A DNA stretch of 34,703 bases, taken from a bacterium (GTDB lineage: Bacteria; DUMJ01). A program made the translations under genes and the position numbers. Each line of letters starts with the position of its first letter. Position 1 is the first letter of the stretch. A model generated the notes under the pieces. It ran no database searches. It saw only the letters and a program-made list of their open reading frames with translations, and was not told the DNA's origin. The stretch is taken from contig JBMFMV010000011.1 of the NCBI GenBank assembly GCA_049970495.1, positions 1 through 34,703 on the forward strand. Reading direction: 5' to 3'. Positions 25,674 to 31,964 of this stretch are shown here, piece by piece.

Positions 25674-26354
25674 ATGAAACGCTCTGAAATAAATAAAATT
25701 TTAAAAGAATCTATCTCTTTTATTGAGAAGATGAATTTTCATCTTCCTCCCTTTGCACATTGGACCCCTGAAGACTGGAAGGATAAAGGGGAGGAGTATG
25801 ATGAGATAAGGGATAATATGCTAGGTTGGGATATAACCGACTTTGGTAAAGGAGATTTTTATAGAGAAGGCCTAGTTTTATTTACTATAAGAAATGGCAA
25901 CTTGAATATAAAAAAGTATATAAAGCCCTATGCGGAAAAGATTCTCATAGTTAGAGAAGAACAGATTACACCTTTTCATTTCCACTGGAGCAAGATGGAG
26001 GATATTATAAACCGCGGGGGAGGAAATATCTTAATACAACTATACAATTCAACAGAAGACGGAGGACTTGCTGATACACCTATCCATATTTCCATGGATG
26101 GAAGAAACTATACCGCTCCTGCAGGAACAATTGTAAGATTGACCCCTGGAGAGAGTATAACACTATTTCCGAAGGTATACCATAAATTCTGGGGGGAAAA
26201 GGGAACCGGCTTTACCCTCCTAGGAGAAGTATCTTCTGTAAATGATGATAATATAGATAATAGATTTTTAGAGCCAATAGGTAGATTCCCAGAGATAGAG
26301 GAAGATGAACCGCCCTTTAGGCTGTTAGTGATAGACTATAGGAAAGGAGAATAG
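25674..26354 (+). CDS. D-lyxose/D-mannose isomerase-family cupin (DUF1498-type)
   Basis: MKRSEIN, LPPFA.W, LGWDITDFG, YAEK, TPFHFHWSKMEDIINRGGG, PGESITL, YHKFWG, GEVSSVNDD. Confidence 0.88.
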   Translation: MKRSEINKILKESISFIEKMNFHLPPFAHWTPEDWKDKGEEYDEIRDNMLGWDITDFGKGDFYREGLVLFTIRNGNLNIKKYIKPYAEKILIVREEQITPFHFHWSKMEDIINRGGGNILIQLYNSTEDGGLADTPIHISMDGRNYTAPAGTIVRLTPGESITLFPKVYHKFWGEKGTGFTLLGEVSSVNDDNIDNRFLEPIGRFPEIEEDEPPFRLLVIDYRKGE

Positions 26355-26357
26355 GCT

Positions 26358-27263
26358 ATGGAAGAAGTGAATGAAATAATGAATAAGGCATGGAAACTTG
26401 GAATCCTCATTCCTGCTTTTAATGCAGCTTATCTTCCTATGGTAAAGACGATAGTCGATACCTTAAAAGAGGAAAGGACATTTGGGTTGGTTGAGGTTTC
26501 TCGCCCTGATGTAGAAAAATTTGGAGCTAAGAGCTTTGCTAGTGTAGCTGAGGAATTCTATAAATATGCTGATTTTTATTATACCAGACTTCATCTTGAC
26601 CATATTCCTGTCATAGACGAAGATGGTAATCTAGTCGATTGGGAAAAACTTATAAAAGAGGGGATAGAGCTTGGATATCATTCTGTGATGATTGACGGTT
26701 CTAGACTTCCGTTAGAAGAGAATATAGCCTGCACCAAAAGGGTTATAGAAATGGCACACCCTAGAGGTGTTCCCGTTGAGGCAGAGCTTGGGGCAGTATT
26801 CGGGCACGAAAAGGGGCCCCTTCCTCCATACGAGGAGCTCTTTATTTCTAAAAAGGGGTTTACATCTGTTGAGTCAGCTAAAATCTTTGTAAAAGAGACT
26901 AATGTCGACTGGCTCTCTGTAGCTATAGGAAATATACATGGTGCAATATCAGGTGTGGCAAAGGATCAAAAGAAGATATCTGCAAGACTTGATATAGAGC
27001 ATCTAAAAAGATTAAAAGAAGTCACTCAAAGACCGCTAGTTCTTCATGGAGGCTCAGGTATAAAAATAGAGTATCTAAGACTGGCTATAGAGAACGGAAT
27101 AACAAAGATTAATATTGGTACAGAAATAAGACAGGCATATGAGAAGGGACTAAAAGAGAGTAACAACGATATAGGTTTTGCCTGTAGTAAAGTTGCAGAC
27201 AAAATAAGAGAGCTTATAGAGTTATATGGAATTAAAAATAGTGTAGATAAACTATATGCTTAG
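26358..27263 (+). CDS. Class II ketose-(bis)phosphate aldolase (Fba/GatY family)
   Basis: PAFN, LHLDH, SVMIDGS, VEAELG, VAIGNIHG, LVLHGGSG, KINIGT. Confidence 0.9.
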   Translation: MEEVNEIMNKAWKLGILIPAFNAAYLPMVKTIVDTLKEERTFGLVEVSRPDVEKFGAKSFASVAEEFYKYADFYYTRLHLDHIPVIDEDGNLVDWEKLIKEGIELGYHSVMIDGSRLPLEENIACTKRVIEMAHPRGVPVEAELGAVFGHEKGPLPPYEELFISKKGFTSVESAKIFVKETNVDWLSVAIGNIHGAISGVAKDQKKISARLDIEHLKRLKEVTQRPLVLHGGSGIKIEYLRLAIENGITKINIGTEIRQAYEKGLKESNNDIGFACSKVADKIRELIELYGIKNSVDKLYA

Positions 27264-28274
27264 GACAACCTTTAATAGAGTGCTATCCTTCTGAGCCAAT
27301 TCTTTAAAGACTTTTGGTCCCTCATCTAAAGGTACTACTTTGCTAAGCATCTTATCAATATCAATTTTCTCTAAAAGACTTATCGACTCTTTAAATTCCC
27401 ATAATGTATAAGTATAGGTCCCTAGAATCCTTAATTCTCTAGTTACTATGTTCTGCATATCTATAGTGATGTTTTTCATGGAGTTTCCAACAAATACACA
27501 AGTTCCTCTATTTTTTATTATTCTAAGTGCCTGATTTACCGTTGTCTCTAAGCCAACTGCTTCAAACGCTAGGTCTATACCGCTAGGGAGAGATTTAGAT
27601 ACAGATTCTTTTATATCCTCTTTGTTAGGATTTAATACTAGGTCAGCCCCAAGTTTTCTAGCTATTCCAAGTCTTTTCTCATTTATATCAGTAATTACGA
27701 CTGTCCTTGCTCCGCCTAGTTTTACAATCTGGAGTATTAGAAGTCCTATAGTTCCAGCCCCAACTATTAATATATTTCGATTTAGAATATCTCCAGCCGT
27801 CTTTACTGCTCTATAGGCTACTGAGAGTGGCTCTAGAAAGGTGCCTCTAATAAAATCTATGTTCTCAGGTAATTTCAAGATATTTTCCTTAGGAACCCCT
27901 ACATATTCAGCCATAGCCCCATTCACATTCATAACACCAAAGATCGTTCTGCTCACACAAAGATTTGTCAATCCAATCTTACAGAATTCACATTTACCAC
28001 AGAACCTCGCCGGATAAACAACTACCCTGTCTCCTATGGAGATATCCTCTACCCCTTCTGCTACAGAGGATACTACTCCCGTAAATTCATGCCCCATAAC
28101 CATAGGAGGAATGCGTCTACCGGTTATGCCTAAATATCCGTGTACATCAGAACCACAAATACCACAAGCCTTTACCTTAACAAGGATTTCATCCTTATTA
28201 ATCTCTGGTTCTTCTATCTCTGAGATTCTTATATCCTGAGGTCCATAATACACTAAAGCCTTCACAATTTTCAC
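27252..28274 (-). CDS. Zn-dependent polyol(-phosphate) dehydrogenase (galactitol-1-P/sorbitol dehydrogenase-like)
   Basis: CGICGSDVH, MGHEF, CGKCEFC..NLC, EPLSVA, GAGTIG. Confidence 0.88.
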   Translation of the reverse strand: MKIVKALVYYGPQDIRISEIEEPEINKDEILVKVKACGICGSDVHGYLGITGRRIPPMVMGHEFTGVVSSVAEGVEDISIGDRVVVYPARFCGKCEFCKIGLTNLCVSRTIFGVMNVNGAMAEYVGVPKENILKLPENIDFIRGTFLEPLSVAYRAVKTAGDILNRNILIVGAGTIGLLILQIVKLGGARTVVITDINEKRLGIARKLGADLVLNPNKEDIKESVSKSLPSGIDLAFEAVGLETTVNQALRIIKNRGTCVFVGNSMKNITIDMQNIVTRELRILGTYTYTLWEFKESISLLEKIDIDKMLSKVVPLDEGPKVFKELAQKDSTLLKVVLSI

Positions 28275-28283
28275 CTACCTTAT

Positions 28284-29141
28284 TTATATTTTTGCTATAA
28301 TCTTCTTTAACTCTAATGCTTTCTTATAGACTCGATTTTTTGGTAAGTTAAACTTTTTAGATACTATCTCAATAGCCTCTTTTAAAGAGACCCCTTCTTT
28401 AGCTATGGCATCTATTATTAAAGCCTCTATACTTACTTCCAAATCAATCTTTTCAGTTTCTTCTTCATTATAGATTACTATAGTGTATTCCCCAACTCCA
28501 ACATTTGGGTCATTCTTCAATTCCTCTAAAACGTCGTAGATTTTTCCTATATATGACCTTTCGAAGACCTTTGTAAGCTCACAGAAGAAGCATACTGTAG
28601 AGTCTGGTAGTTCCCTAGCAATAAGTTCAGCTAGTGATAATATTCTTTTTGGAGATTCGTACAGAACTACAGTCTCTATATCTTTCCTCTTAATACTCCT
28701 TATAATCTCCTCTCTTTCTGATTCTTTCTTGGGCAAAAATCCTAAAAATAAAAAATGATTTATAGGAACCCCTGATACAGATAGGGCAGCCATAACTGCA
28801 GATGGACCAGGTATTGGGATAACCTCTATTCCCTTTTCCCTTGCATCCTTTACTATTCTGTATCCAGGGTCAGATATACAGGGTGTTCCTGCATTAGATA
28901 CAAGTGCTACATCCATATCCTTTTCCAATATATAACCTATGAGCAATCTAGACCTTTCCTCTTCGTTATACTTGTGATAAGAGATTAGCTTGGTCTCTAT
29001 GTTGTAGTGTTTTAATAGTATAGATGTATGTCTTGTATCTTCAGCAGCGATTAAGTCACAGTTATTAAGGACTTCTATAGCCCTATAAGTAATATCCTTT
29101 AGGTTACCTATAGGTGTAGCAACTACATATAGCCTGCCCAT
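28284..29141 (-). CDS. rsmI: 16S rRNA (cytidine(1402)-2'-O)-methyltransferase
   Basis: LYVVATPIGNL.DIT.RA, AEDTRHT, AGTPCISDPG, PIPGPSA, FLGFLP, YESP.R, ELTK. Confidence 0.93.
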   Translation of the reverse strand: MGRLYVVATPIGNLKDITYRAIEVLNNCDLIAAEDTRHTSILLKHYNIETKLISYHKYNEEERSRLLIGYILEKDMDVALVSNAGTPCISDPGYRIVKDAREKGIEVIPIPGPSAVMAALSVSGVPINHFLFLGFLPKKESEREEIIRSIKRKDIETVVLYESPKRILSLAELIARELPDSTVCFFCELTKVFERSYIGKIYDVLEELKNDPNVGVGEYTIVIYNEEETEKIDLEVSIEALIIDAIAKEGVSLKEAIEIVSKKFNLPKNRVYKKALELKKIIAKI

Positions 29142-29142
29142 C

Positions 29143-29937
29143 CTATTTTTCTCTTTTAATCAGTATATAGAACATCTCATTAATTAGTATAAATCTTTTT
29201 ACAATATAATGACCCCTTTGAAGGATAGGTTCAAAAAGTCTGCCATAGTTATCTGACATCCCCTTTTCTTTCCCTGAAAGACTCTTCAGAGGAAAGGAGA
29301 CTACTATAAACTTGCTCCTTATAGTTTCTAGTAGTTTTACAGAGAGCCCTCTTTTTATTCTCTCTGCTGTAGGAAGGAACTTAAATATAAAGCATACATC
29401 TACGCATTCCTCAACCTCCTCAAAGAGAACATCTTTTACTCTAGCTAATTGAGGATAGCTTAAAATAGCTAAAAACTTATTGATACTTTCTATAACTACA
29501 GCATCTATGTCATAAGCATAGTAGTTTATAGGACCTTCTATATTCATCCAGGGTATAGAAAATGGATTGAGTCCACAGGCTAAGTCTAATATAGAACTAG
29601 GTTTACTGACAGTATCAAAAATCTCTCTATAGAGCTCTCCATATATATCAATCCGTTCTCTAGTGGATTGGTGTAGTTGGAGTATCATCTTTGCTATACC
29701 CTTAATGTCTGAACGATCTTTCTCTAGGATCGATACTAATTCTCTGAGCTTTTGACTTTCTTCTTTGCTCAAAAATGCCCCATATGTTTGATGGAGTCTA
29801 TTTTTTACCGCTTTTATTAGGTTCTTTTCACTCTTATGTTTGGGTAGTTCTATCCTTGCTATCTCTAAGATTGTCCTCTCACTTATTTCTCTATACTTAC
29901 TAGAAGACTTTATCTTTTCCACTAGCTCTTCAAGCAT
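29143..29937 (-). CDS. ArmA/Rmt/FmrO(Sgm)-family 16S rRNA (guanine(1405)-N7)-methyltransferase homolog
   Basis: SSKYR, K.RLHQTYGAF, LHQSTRER, ILDLACGLNPF, YYAYDID, FKFLP..E, VVSFPLKSLSGKEKGM..NY, NEMFY: the family signatures in the expected order; 264 aa. Confidence 0.9.
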   Translation of the reverse strand: MLEELVEKIKSSSKYREISERTILEIARIELPKHKSEKNLIKAVKNRLHQTYGAFLSKEESQKLRELVSILEKDRSDIKGIAKMILQLHQSTRERIDIYGELYREIFDTVSKPSSILDLACGLNPFSIPWMNIEGPINYYAYDIDAVVIESINKFLAILSYPQLARVKDVLFEEVEECVDVCFIFKFLPTAERIKRGLSVKLLETIRSKFIVVSFPLKSLSGKEKGMSDNYGRLFEPILQRGHYIVKRFILINEMFYILIKREK

Positions 29938-31009
29938 TGTTTCTCTCTTTTATAAGTCCTATAAGTTCACTATAAAAGTAGAGATTATGAATAGTAGCTA
30001 ATCTAAATGCTAAGCAGTCTTCTACTTCAAAGAGATGATGTATATATGCCCTAGAGAAGTTCCTACAGGTATAACAATTACAGTACTCTGATATAGGCTT
30101 TTCATCTCTAGTGTACCTTTCTTCCTTTATAAAGATATTGCTGTAAAAATATTTATCTTTCAGGTCTATCCCGGGATTAAATACGTATAACTTACCATGT
30201 CTAGCTTCTCTAGTTGGTATAACGCAATCAAAGAGATTATAGCCAAATTCTGCACATATAACGATATTTTCTGGTTTTCCTATACCCATTGCATACTTGG
30301 GAAGATTGTTAGGCATCAGATTAGCAGTATATTCTAAAATCTCTACTAATAAGTTTCCATCTTTATCTAAGGGCCAACCCCCAAATCCATATCCATCAAA
30401 ACCTATCTCTATTAGAGAGTCTGCGCATCTTTTTCTTAAATCTCTATCCCTTCCTCCTTGTATTATTCCAAAGATGAGAGGTCGTTTACTCTTAGGATAA
30501 GTCTCTAAGAGCCTTTTATACTCATCTTTACATTTTAGAGCCCATTTAATAGTCTTCTCTACGGACTCTCTATTTATCTGATAAGAATCATCAGGATGAG
30601 TACAGTAATCTAGACTCATGATTATATCTGCTCCACAAAGATATTGAGTTTTAATACATCTTTCTGGTGTAAGTTCTATTTTCTCTTTAGAGGATGGTCT
30701 AAAAATGATACCTTTGTCTGTTACACTCCCGTACTTACTATTCTCTCTAATCATGGAGAATATCTGAAATCCTCCTGAGTCGGTAAGAATAGCTCCATCC
30801 CAGTTTATAAACTTATGGAGCCCTCCAAATTCTTTTATAACAGTAATCCCTGGCTTTTTCATAAGATGTAAGGTATTTATCACTATACCACGGATATTAG
30901 CACTATGTAGGTCTTTCTTATCTACTGATCGGACGACCCCACTAGTACCATCTGGAAAAAAAGCGGGCAATTCTACGTATCCGCTAGGTATATCTAGAAT
31001 CTTTTCCAT
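29930..31009 (-). CDS. tgt: tRNA-guanine transglycosylase-family protein with atypical base-binding pocket
   Basis: LTDSGGFQ, MSLDYC, GIIQGG, MGIGKP, LFDCVIPTR, CNCYTC..H Zn site, HNL; pocket loop reads GGWPLDK. Confidence 0.88.
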   Translation of the reverse strand: MEKILDIPSGYVELPAFFPDGTSGVVRSVDKKDLHSANIRGIVINTLHLMKKPGITVIKEFGGLHKFINWDGAILTDSGGFQIFSMIRENSKYGSVTDKGIIFRPSSKEKIELTPERCIKTQYLCGADIIMSLDYCTHPDDSYQINRESVEKTIKWALKCKDEYKRLLETYPKSKRPLIFGIIQGGRDRDLRKRCADSLIEIGFDGYGFGGWPLDKDGNLLVEILEYTANLMPNNLPKYAMGIGKPENIVICAEFGYNLFDCVIPTREARHGKLYVFNPGIDLKDKYFYSNIFIKEERYTRDEKPISEYCNCYTCRNFSRAYIHHLFEVEDCLAFRLATIHNLYFYSELIGLIKERNNA

Positions 31010-31037
31010 AAAGCTTTCTCATTCTATTTTTGGATTT

Positions 31038-31046
31038 ATTATAACA
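31038..31046 (-). promoter_or_regulatory. Putative extended -10 promoter of the tgt-methyltransferase-rsmI operon
   Basis: Minus strand TGTTATAAT (TGnTATAAT) ends 28 nt upstream of the tgt ATG. Confidence 0.55.
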
Positions 31047-31057
31047 TACTCGAACAC

Positions 31058-31086
31058 TTGCCAAGTGTCTAACTATATGTTATACT
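31058..31086 (+). promoter_or_regulatory. Sigma70 promoter of the rpsB operon
   Basis: TTGCCA (31058-63), 17-nt spacer, TATACT (31081-86) with TG at 31078-79. Confidence 0.7.
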
Positions 31087-31089
31087 TTC

Positions 31090-31169
31090 ACAAGAATCTG
31101 CATGCCTCATATCTCTAAGTCCACTTTGGTGGTAATGAGGCAGAAGTTTAACTTAGAGGAGGAGAATAT
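31090..31169 (+). promoter_or_regulatory. Structured rpsB 5' leader (candidate S2 autoregulatory/t44-like element)
   Basis: TGCCTCAT (31103-10) pairs with ATGAGGCA (31135-42), enclosing a CCAC-TTTG-GTGG hairpin; lies between the promoter and the AGGAGG RBS. Confidence 0.5.
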
Positions 31170-31964
31170 ATGGCAATAGTGACTATTAAACAGCTTTTAG
31201 AAGCAGGTGTCCATTTTGGACATCAAACGAAACGTTGGAATCCCAAGATGAAGCCCTATATCTTTGCAGAGCGAAATGGGATTCACATAATAGATCTTCA
31301 AAAGACAGTGGTGTGTTTAGAGAAGGCTTATGAAATTGTAAGAGACGTATCAGGTAACGGGGGAAAGGTCCTTTTTGTTGGAACTAAGAAACAAGCTTAT
31401 GAGGTTATAAAGACTGAGGCTGAGAGATGCGGAATGCCCTATGTAAATCAGAGATGGCTTGGGGGACTTCTTACTAATTTTCAAACAGTTAGAAGGAGTA
31501 TAGAGAAGTTAAAGAAGTTAAGAGAGGAAAGAGATAAGGGATTGTGGGACTCATACACAAAGAGGGAGAGAAAGCACTTAGAGATAGAGCTTAATAGGCT
31601 TGAGAAGTATGTAGGGGGAATAGAAAACCTTAACAGTCTTCCAGAACTCTTATTCATCATAGATACAAAGAAAGAGGAAAACGCGGTTAAGGAAGCTAAG
31701 AGACTTGGAATTCCTATAGTTGGTGTGGTAGATACGAATGGTGATCCAGAGATTATAGATTATCCTATTCCTGGAAATGATGATGCTATAAGAGCTATAA
31801 GACTATACTGCAGCAAGATTGCAGATGCGGTATTAGAGGGGGTAGGAATGAGAAAAGAGGAGGTTGAAGAAGAGATAACAGAAATGCCAAGTATAGAAGA
31901 GATTTCTATAGAAGAAATTGAAGAAAAGGTAGCAAGTGAATACGAGGAGGAGACGTTAGATTGA
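31170..31964 (+). CDS. rpsB: 30S ribosomal protein S2
   Basis: [50 protein letters not shown]; acidic tail. Confidence 0.99.

Follow-up and report, generated by a model that had tools for sequence, protein, structure and literature searches.

A tRNA-guanine transglycosylase paralogue paired with FmrO/Rmt-type methyltransferases in a conserved operon that may modify the 16S rRNA decoding site

We investigated a 34,703-nucleotide (nt) stretch of bacterial DNA (contig JBMFMV010000011.1 of assembly GCA_049970495.1, GTDB lineage Bacteria; DUMJ01), called the window below. On its minus strand, a divergent paralogue of tRNA-guanine transglycosylase (TGT) precedes a homologue of the FmrO/Rmt family of 16S rRNA methyltransferases and the gene rsmI. 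TGT2 is the name given here to the clade of window-type TGTs. The features of the locus are the following, with the basis of each in brackets.

29930-31009, minus strand: TGT2, divergent tRNA-guanine transglycosylase paralogue, 359 amino acids (aa) (open reading frame (ORF) list, family models, alignment)
29143-29937, minus strand: FmrO/Rmt-type S-adenosylmethionine (SAM)-dependent 16S rRNA (G1405-N7)-methyltransferase homologue, 264 aa (family models, alignment)
28284-29141, minus strand: rsmI, 16S rRNA C1402 2'-O-methyltransferase, 285 aa (family models)
27252-28274, minus strand: Zn-dependent dehydrogenase, threonine/sugar-alcohol dehydrogenase-like, 340 aa (ORF list, family models)
31038-31046, minus strand: extended -10-like box TGtTATAAT, candidate promoter (read from the sequence upstream of TGT2)

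The first three genes are tightly coupled. The end of TGT2 and the beginning of the methyltransferase gene overlap by the 8 nt ATGCTTGA (29930-29937), and the ATG of rsmI follows the methyltransferase stop after one intervening base (29142), so that the junctions described in an earlier note on this DNA were reproduced to the exact coordinate. Its naming of the genes as a TGT, an Rmt-type methyltransferase and RsmI was borne out by family models. The first gene scored 353.2 bits against PF01702 (cut-off 26.3) and 345.9 against TIGR00430 (cut-off 306.75), and the third 248.5 against TIGR00096 (cut-off 167.9) with 27.4 bits for the RsmI C-terminal domain PF23016 (RsmI_C). The methyltransferase scored 141 bits against PF07091 (FmrO; cut-off 27), covering positions 2-255 of 255, and fell just under the cut-off of NF000466, "Rmt family" (245.5 against 250), a name that relatives 63-65% identical to it bear at NCBI. 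A 160-nt spacer, common to TGT2 and the divergent rpsB, holds the TGtTATAAT box; across it run rpsB, tsf, pyrH and frr, as had been reported, and uppS in addition. The earlier note had placed the operon behind this box. It is indeed present at 31046-31038, but a promoter consensus scan of positions 27000-31400 returned 14 promoter-like sites compared to 15.9 +/- 4.4 in shuffled sequences, and the box was not among the sites listed by that scan; since such matches are no commoner than in shuffles, we regard it as a candidate promoter only. Likewise, the proposed three-gene operon stood as far as the coupling goes, but it had omitted a fourth co-directional gene, and rsmI turned out to be a frequent rather than an obligatory member (52 of the 80 TGT2 loci described below). 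The fourth gene, encoding the dehydrogenase, begins about 9 nt past the rsmI stop on the same strand and is probably co-transcribed with the operon. It follows rsmI at only one of four loci in relative genomes (L006, as opposed to L007-L009) and is therefore a passenger, outside the conserved module.

The window's genome assembly (95.5% complete, 143 contigs) contains a second TGT, which scores higher against PF01702 (412.7 bits over positions 73-355 plus 97.2 over 3-74). This canonical tgt is split over two contig ends (G000 contigs C118:1-1271 and C61:3-869; L004, L001), and its N-terminal piece lies directly after queA. Its motifs read GGLSVGE and LDEC, where the window copy has GGWPLDK and LDYC. 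A canonical TGT (508-570 bits) was also present in all five other TGT2 genomes checked, in which the window type scores 331-342; QueA occurs in all five and adjoins the canonical tgt in four. Thus, in 6/6 genomes checked, the window-type TGT is a paralogue additional to the canonical tgt and not a replacement for it. No second rsmI accompanies it, the window copy being the only rsmI match in the genome, and the single rsmH lies on another contig.

We then compared the window TGT with its relatives. The motif GG[WYF]P was found in all 120 best homologues (54-88% identical), which come from Dictyoglomus, Clostridia, Oscillospiraceae and Anaerobacterium. In a quick maximum-likelihood tree, for which TGT2 was thinned to every second row plus seven chosen ones and the canonical set included the copies of the same genomes, one branch with a Shimodaira-Hasegawa-like approximate likelihood ratio (SH-aLRT) support of 100 parts 45 TGT2 from 14 canonical TGTs. 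Comparison of 82 TGT2 with 14 canonical sequences, in window numbering, showed that D77, S78, Q82, D134, C136, Q184, G210, G211, D261, C310, C312, C315 and H341 are invariant in 82/82 TGT2; they are also kept in 14/14 canonical sequences, except for C136, which is Pro in one canonical row. M241 is kept in 81/82 TGT2 and 14/14 canonical TGTs. The two groups differ at the following positions.

Position 20: Asp in 81/82 TGT2; Val in 14/14 canonical (FMPVGT; window motif FFPDGT)
Position 212: Trp in 79/82 TGT2; Leu in 12/14 canonical
Position 213: Pro in 82/82 TGT2; Ser in 14/14 canonical (Ala232 in Z. mobilis)
Position 215: Asp in 75/82 TGT2; Gly in 14/14 canonical
Position 216: variable in TGT2 (A, K, S); Glu in 14/14 canonical (the Glu235 position)

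Moreover, two conserved insertions (E89-N90 and F288-Y289) are specific to TGT2, and its N-terminus is about 25 residues shorter than that of canonical Tgt. TGT2 members pass or approach the TIGR00430 cut-off of 306.75 (231-322 bits for the fusion proteins described below). This model does not separate the clades, and TGT2 is therefore annotated as "tRNA guanosine(34) transglycosylase Tgt", the NCBI name borne by the TGT2 relatives P0002, P0008, P0010, P0030 and others. The TGT2 genes of two Clostridia carry large insertions (L089, G050:C161, and L090, G140:C25; 411 and 439 aa compared to about 360), and one of the two has an unusually long tree branch (1.22).

Most of these differences cluster in the base-binding pocket, whose motif in the window reads GFGGWPLDK in full. 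In the motif register used, Asp280 of Z. mobilis Tgt is the counterpart of D261 and its Leu231-Ala232 that of W212-P213, while D77, D134, Q184 and G211 stand for what we take to be Asp102, Asp156, Gln203 and Gly230 of that enzyme. Asp280 is described as the nucleophile of the ping-pong reaction in the available part of a study of the Z. mobilis enzyme (PMC3660597). According to the same source, when guanine is bound the Leu231/Ala232 peptide turns its NH toward the pocket, with a water molecule bridging the Ala232 amide to N7 of G34; when prequeuosine-1 (preQ1) is bound, the peptide is flipped with its carbonyl toward the pocket, and Glu235 supports both states (PMC3660597). The switch motif GGL[AS]VGE, with Glu235, is missing from TGT2. 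TGT2, with a proline that lacks an amide hydrogen and without the supporting Glu, cannot take the guanine-N7-binding state, and its pocket is presumably fixed with the carbonyl toward position 7. Judging from these motifs, such a pocket would suit a base whose position 7 bears a cationic or donor group, for instance 7-methylguanine (m7G) made by the partner methyltransferase or a preQ1-like base.

Sgm (147.7 bits, chain 18-280), RmtC (125.9 bits, chain 8-278), RmtB and ArmA match the methyltransferase along its entire length. In the part available to us of a cryo-electron microscopy study of RmtC on the 30S subunit (PMC10288597), His54, Tyr60, Lys204, Lys236 and Met245 are reported as functionally critical, with Lys204 universally conserved and in contact with N7 of G1405. 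They align with H49, F55, K186, K218 and M227 of the window enzyme, and among 79 TGT2-linked enzymes H49 is conserved in 98%, K186 in 97% and M227 in 94%. Since the residues that position G1405 are conserved, the TGT2-linked enzymes very probably methylate N7 of G1405 in the 30S subunit. Arm-family enzymes have been reported, in the available text of PMC12406665, to interfere with RsmF and RsmI, and this would explain why helix-44 enzymes might need coordination within a single operon.

The earlier note had proposed a dedicated TGT-methyltransferase module and had asked how often TGTs carrying GGWP adjoin an FmrO-family gene. A one-genome-per-species scan with a TGT2 alignment gave 583 relatives, of which the best 80 (50-82% identical) were kept; their loci are mostly from Bacillota/Clostridia, with one Dictyoglomota genome and a few under other labels. 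Adjacency was counted by tblastn with the window proteins and not by ORF calling. An FmrO-type gene was found directly downstream of TGT2 on the same strand in 78/80 loci; the GGWP-type TGTs, a large separate clade, nearly always have this neighbour. As for the exceptions, locus L041 ends 70 nt past TGT2 and L068 has ftsH downstream; both genomes carry FmrO elsewhere with no TGT2 beside it, and at the genome level 80/80 hold both genes. Of 80 pairs (the 78 loci plus two from the Clostridia sample below), 65 show an overlap of 1-20 nt between stop and start, under a choice of start codon that favours the position predicted by alignment. Methyltransferases from outside the window's genus share only 27-45% identity with the window enzyme, and the pair is therefore not a recently spread block. 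Among 41 relatives searched, the adjacent pair was present in all five other species of the window's genus; the single sister-genus genome had a TGT of canonical level only (233 bits) and no real FmrO, and FmrO was not found in the other 34.

The linkage was equally apparent in the reverse direction. About 400 genomes were drawn evenly from the class of Anaerobacterium chartisolvens (the Clostridia sample); the Pfam FmrO model was above its cut-off in 3/400 (one further genome was not scored), compared to 0/14 control genomes. FmrO lies directly downstream of a TGT2-type gene in the two new FmrO genomes of this sample. A search of the same sample for TGT2 at E <= 1e-88 picked out two of the three FmrO genomes and no other (two genomes were not scored); the TGT2 of the third carries an insertion and was visible by tblastn only, and a divergent TGT2 can therefore fall short of this threshold. 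Metagenome contigs were scanned with a distant FmrO alignment, with a Ktedonobacteraceae protein as its first row, giving 568 relatives of which 80 were kept. A TGT2-like gene lies upstream on the same strand in 75/80 of these loci, in 74 within 300 nt, the gap at L173 being 1058 nt. Three of the five FmrO loci with no TGT2 match have at most 157 nt of upstream DNA; TGT2 is apparently lacking upstream at L174 (574 nt available) and L179 (1607 nt available). Among the upstream TGTs that cover the columns, the pocket motif, read from the alignment, was GG[WY]P in 61/61 and the Val position was Asp in 49/50; the four catalytic or recognition residues tested were kept in 54/54. These samples come from Bacillota, from Dictyoglomota, from the lineage of the window and from soil-type metagenome contigs. 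Four soil-type metagenome loci (L128:4779-5636, L151, L178 and another) have a further FmrO paralogue, diverged in sequence, after the one linked to TGT2.

These counts bear on whether three unrelated housekeeping genes might simply have come together in a compact genome. The genome is indeed gene-dense, and an unrelated dehydrogenase follows rsmI just as closely; however, adjacency of 78/80, 75/80 and 3/3 in independent samples, together with the natural fusions described below, leaves a chance juxtaposition with virtually negligible probability. The claim of a dedicated module was thus upheld: a pairing confined to this genome, or a window copy that was its sole TGT, would have spoken against the module, and neither is the case. 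The linkage is also asymmetric. No TGT2 genome was without FmrO (0/80), while FmrO occurs without an adjacent TGT2 at L179 and probably L174, and rmtE2, from a plasmid discussed below, adjoins only a truncated TGT2; rmtE confers resistance. That TGT2 never occurs without FmrO but FmrO sometimes occurs without TGT2 fits a dependence of TGT2 on the product of the methyltransferase.

The wider gene order of the 80 TGT2 loci falls into a few arrangements.

rsmH, TGT2, fmrO, rsmI: 18/80 loci (and 2 more with rsmI slightly further away)
TGT2, fmrO, rsmI: 16/80 loci (5 with rsmH elsewhere in the locus)
rsmI, TGT2, fmrO: 10/80 loci
TGT2, fmrO alone: 24/80 loci

Overall, rsmI lies within 52/80 loci and rsmH within 30/80, the latter assignment being based on a PF01795 score of 394 bits for one representative. 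C1402, the target of both RsmH and RsmI, is three nucleotides away from G1405. A search among longer proteins revealed that TGT2 is also fused to each of these partners: to RsmH in P0241, to RsmI in P0242, P0243 and P0245, and to FmrO in P0244, P0246 and P0247. The TGT part of these proteins is of TGT2 level (45-53% identical), and NCBIfam models identified full-length partners (RsmH 311.8, cut-off 154.3; RsmI 207-213, cut-off 167.9; Rmt family 188-225). GGWP is present in 7/7 fusions and the Asp-for-Val motif in six; the exception is P0247, a protein with a short N-terminus, where the motif was not found. In contrast, TGT fusions of canonical level (34-39% identical) join QueA or PF05430 domains, and the three checked keep GGLAVGE and FMPVGT. 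QueA is an enzyme of tRNA position 34. The QueA-TGT fusions are P0248, P0250 and P0305; about 100 protein clusters within P0252-P0360 combine a PF05430 methyltransferase domain with a canonical-type TGT (GGLAVGE in the two checked) and come from Leptospira, Deltaproteobacteria, Opitutaceae, Myxococcota and others. The convergence of the three window enzymes on the decoding site, as claimed in the earlier note, is thus strengthened by the fusions of TGT2 with RsmH, RsmI and FmrO.

In 48 genomes with all three proteins, distance-matrix correlations were 0.89 for TGT2-FmrO, 0.94 for TGT2-RsmI and 0.91 for FmrO-RsmI, and 0/2000 permutations were as high. The mean distance was 0.39 for TGT2, 0.51 for RsmI and 0.63 for FmrO, so that conservation is strongest in TGT2. 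The pair is evidently ancient and maintained by selection, and it has kept to its hosts in much the manner of a housekeeping gene. A predicted complex of TGT2 (alignment A1) with the methyltransferase (alignment A2) received a score of 0.00 in a run without controls, a value that speaks neither for nor against binding.

Taken together, the locus is best read as a conserved operon that modifies the decoding site of 16S rRNA, with TGT2 acting on the 30S subunit or 16S rRNA together with or after the methyltransferase; we give this reading a probability of roughly 0.6. The operon would serve the top of helix 44 (C1402, G1405), and TGT2 would be a guanine-exchange enzyme whose substrate is the 30S subunit or 16S rRNA and not tRNA, working at or beside G1405. 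A base other than preQ1, or a non-canonical RNA, as the earlier note suggested for TGT2, may be what it handles. The suggested order, with TGT2 after the methyltransferase, follows from a pocket that cannot bind plain guanine N7 and from the asymmetric distribution. More generally, TGT2 is a clade of the TGT superfamily that has an obligate methyltransferase partner and, probably, a new substrate.

Several observations weigh against this reading. We infer the RNA substrate of TGT2, its site and the exchanged base alike, and the pocket argument is a motif alignment to Z. mobilis numbering rather than a TGT2 structure. The pair stands alone in the 24 loci counted above, rsmI and rsmH being missing from many, and rsmI is nearby in only 4/80 soil-type metagenome loci. 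Assembly errors or frameshifts can create apparent fusions among metagenome gene calls, although some of the fusions were found on more than one contig, and since the genomes are related, the Mantel correlations overstate independence. Furthermore, nothing unusual was found around position 1405 in two complete TGT2 genomes, whose 16S decoding site is the universal one; in three draft genomes the decoding-site pattern was not found. The 1405 context in 16S rRNA is C-G-U, and canonical TGT recognises U-G-U. Finally, TGT2 lies above the cut-off of the tRNA Tgt equivalog model and keeps the zinc subdomain, so that a tRNA substrate may be possible.

This last point leads to an alternative in which TGT2 is still a tRNA enzyme that exchanges G34 or another guanine for some other 7-deazaguanine derivative, possibly with a salvage-type specificity as in queuine-using bacterial TGTs, and has its rRNA-gene neighbours by co-regulation. 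All catalytic residues are kept, which would agree with such a role. In the window's genome, QueC gave only partial matches of 21-26 bits and QueF no match at all; preQ1 or a precursor is therefore probably salvaged, a state of affairs that leaves the base used by TGT2 unspecified. A QueT transporter gene together with a PNP_UDP_1 phosphorylase-family gene follows rsmI in four loci (L035, L040, L046, L059), and the gene for an S-component of an energy-coupling factor (ECF) transporter follows fmrO in six (L020, L028, L031, L033, L036, L056); these genes may be weak hints at a supply of base (7-deazaguanine) for TGT2. However, with a canonical tgt and queA in 6/6 genomes checked, tRNA queuosine is already served, and co-regulation leaves a near-obligate two-way link to one rare methyltransferase family unexplained. 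The fusions with three helix-44 enzymes are equally unaccounted for, given that canonical TGTs fuse with enzymes of tRNA position 34, and the differing residues extend to the FMPVGT motif (Val to Asp). A tRNA role for TGT2 is therefore unlikely.

TGT2 might also act on the ribosome with no base exchange at all, as a docking, base-flipping or m7G1405 "reader" partner on the 30S subunit that aids the methyltransferase, RsmI and RsmH. Eukaryotic QTRT2, a non-catalytic TGT relative, would be the model for such a protein. TGT2 is fused or coupled to three enzymes that each flip a helix-44 nucleotide, and a coordinating factor is conceivable in view of the interference with RsmF and RsmI reported for Arm-family enzymes (in the available text cited above). 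Yet the nucleophile, the other catalytic Asp and the guanine-face and zinc positions are invariant in 82/82 sequences, and TGT2 is more conserved than RsmI, which is the pattern of an active enzyme; besides, the clinical enzymes work without an intact TGT2, as with rmtE2 behind its truncated copy. We consider a purely non-catalytic role quite unlikely.

Within the preferred reading, that of a guanine-exchange enzyme at the decoding site, we tentatively propose one specific reaction, although we hold it to be rather doubtful: a methylation-primed base exchange in rRNA, by which m7G1405 would be swapped for another guanine-like base. The Rmt/FmrO enzyme would first methylate G1405 at N7, yielding a cationic base with a weakened glycosidic bond. 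The TGT2 pocket, with its carbonyl and Trp toward position 7, would then excise 7-methylguanine, and TGT2 would install a guanine-like base, for example a preQ1-type 7-deazaguanine, of whose supply the QueT, phosphorylase-family and ECF genes named above may be a weak hint.

A third universal partner gene was not found in the TGT2 loci, the neighbours beyond FmrO, RsmI and RsmH being clade-specific. In one Bacillota group (L014, L020, L021, L024, L028, L029, L031, L033, L036), a protein with a nucleotidyltransferase domain (PF01909, 296 aa) is encoded directly upstream of TGT2, and its gene is preceded by one for 3-deoxy-D-arabino-heptulosonate 7-phosphate (DAHP) synthase. In Anaerobacterium chartisolvens (L017:1-13080 and L016), the pair lies among three radical-SAM genes, one of them with a SPASM domain. 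Also encoded there are a TylF-like O-methyltransferase, a D-Ala-D-Ala-ligase-like protein, two DegT/StrS aminotransferases, a methyltransferase and a glycosyltransferase, and these surroundings look like an amino-sugar or glycan biosynthesis cluster. In the window itself, genes for a D-lyxose isomerase (PF07385, 343 bits) and a class-II aldolase (PF01116) on the plus strand (25674-27263) form, with the convergent Zn-dehydrogenase gene, a small sugar-metabolism group beside the RNA-modification operon.

TGT2 is not confined to chromosomes. A tblastn search of a plasmid collection with TGT2 matched 72 records, of which 30 were listed; 16 of these 30 are TGT2-type (50-58% identical, compared to about 38% for canonical tgt). 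Five plasmid loci (L193-L197, with L195 being NZ_KT935445.1 34321-43400) were compared with the genomic loci L043, L037, L054 and L042. The plasmids, which are from Enterobacterales, carry the following gene orders.

Klebsiella IncC plasmid: rsmH, tgt, rmtG (8-nt overlap), a short "SAM-dependent methyltransferase", IS91-like element
Plasmid: tgt, rmtD1
Plasmid: tgt, metallophosphoesterase, rmtB2
Plasmid: IS91-family transposase, truncated tgt, rmtE2

The tgt genes beside rmtG, rmtD1, rmtB2 and rmtE2 all carry the TGT2 signature. The short ORF after rmtG corresponds to the first ~92 codons of rsmI, cut by the IS91-like element, and a 31-residue rsmH tail lies ahead of the rmtD1-linked tgt. The rmtD1-linked TGT2 is 91.7% identical to the copy at L043, from an uncultured gut Clostridia genome, and the methyltransferase of that locus shares 83.4% identity with RmtD1; the rmtG-linked TGT2 is 82% identical to the copies at L054 (labelled Oscillospiraceae) and L042 (labelled Aristaeellaceae). 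The clinical m7G1405 enzymes RmtD1, RmtG, RmtB2 and RmtE2 thus belong to the TGT2-linked clade, and the similarities point to gut Clostridia as the probable donors of these resistance genes, with IS91/ISCR-type elements as the means of capture. A coding sequence upstream of rmtG appears as a "putative tRNA ribosyltransferase" in the Kp13 genome paper (PMC3904158), and the rsmH-tgt-rmtG block is in print as a description; in the available parts of the two papers (PMC3904158, PMC9311965), tgt is taken for an ordinary tRNA gene and is given no functional link. An "eraser" model, in which TGT2 would turn m7G1405 back to G, is not favoured, since a minimum inhibitory concentration of at least 256 µg/mL has been reported for rmtG (available part of PMC9311965) though TGT2 is apparently intact on the rmtG plasmid records examined.

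The plasmids also raise the question of whether the pair is in essence a cassette for aminoglycoside resistance or self-resistance, with TGT2 as a hitch-hiking or accessory gene. The known members of the methyltransferase family are resistance genes, four clinical rmt families carry TGT2 along, and radical-SAM, DegT aminotransferase, methyltransferase and glycosyltransferase genes flank the Anaerobacterium chartisolvens pair. However, most loci have a housekeeping context (rsmI, rsmH, aminoacyl-tRNA synthetases, plsX), and the pair agrees with the host phylogeny no less closely than rsmI. Moreover, its carriers are mostly strict anaerobes, in which aminoglycoside uptake is generally poor, and hitch-hiking explains neither the strong conservation of TGT2 nor its fusions. 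We therefore regard a resistance cassette as very improbable, and modification of the decoding site remains our preferred function for the pair.

Our full-text literature search, which left subscription journals largely outside, found no report of the TGT2 clade or its function, of a TGT paralogue linked to FmrO/Rmt or of rRNA transglycosylation. If TGT2 acts on 16S rRNA, this would be the third substrate class of the TGT superfamily, after tRNA and DNA, and would imply a decoding-site modification that nobody has looked for. Should the methylation-primed exchange prove true, TGT2 would be the first rRNA transglycosylase, its product the first 7-deazapurine in the ribosome, and the reaction the native function from which the clinical resistance methyltransferases were recruited. 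In the samples examined, most environmental members of the ArmA/Rmt family are one half of a two-enzyme housekeeping module, and the pairing makes the native role and the origin of this family directly testable. The likeness of the rmtD1 block to a chromosomal locus of gut Clostridia bears on the origin of the clinical genes. For annotation, the consequence is that current pipelines systematically name TGT2 as a queuosine enzyme.

Compared to known systems, TGT2 shares fold and family with Tgt of Z. mobilis, E. coli and T. maritima (PDB 2ash, 1enu; 261 bits to T. maritima Tgt), including the same Asp pair, the residues facing the Watson-Crick and O6 sides of guanine and the CxCxxC...H zinc site. 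It differs in forming a separate clade, with Trp-Pro for Leu231-Ala232, Asp for Gly234, loss of Glu235 and Val to Asp in FMPVGT, and in being linked to rRNA methyltransferases, whereas canonical Tgt is linked to queA. Within the superfamily, DpdA and the archaeosine TGT (ArcTGT) are precedents for a change of nucleic-acid substrate or of inserted base. TGT2 itself resembles neither closely: it scored 87.1 bits against the archaeosine model TIGR00432 (cut-off 350) and 30 bits to PDB 1iq8, no DpdA-named chain was among the 55 PDB sequences matched by the window TGT, and no dpd or preQ0-pathway genes lie in the neighbourhood. A DpdA-like role on DNA was rejected for this lack of similarity and context. 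The plasmid rsmH-tgt-rmtG-rsmI block of Klebsiella and Enterobacter has the gene order and the 8-nt coupling of 18 environmental loci, but it is a captured fragment in which rsmI is incomplete. Lastly, the window methyltransferase is homologous over its full length, including the N-terminal 30S-docking domain, to the acquired Rmt/ArmA enzymes and to Sgm, GrmA and FmrO of producers. In contrast to the acquired enzymes, it is chromosomal and stands in a housekeeping context with no mobile element nearby, and the four plasmid Rmt enzymes are only 27-34% identical to it. The window enzyme presumably serves a physiological native role connected with TGT2 rather than drug resistance.

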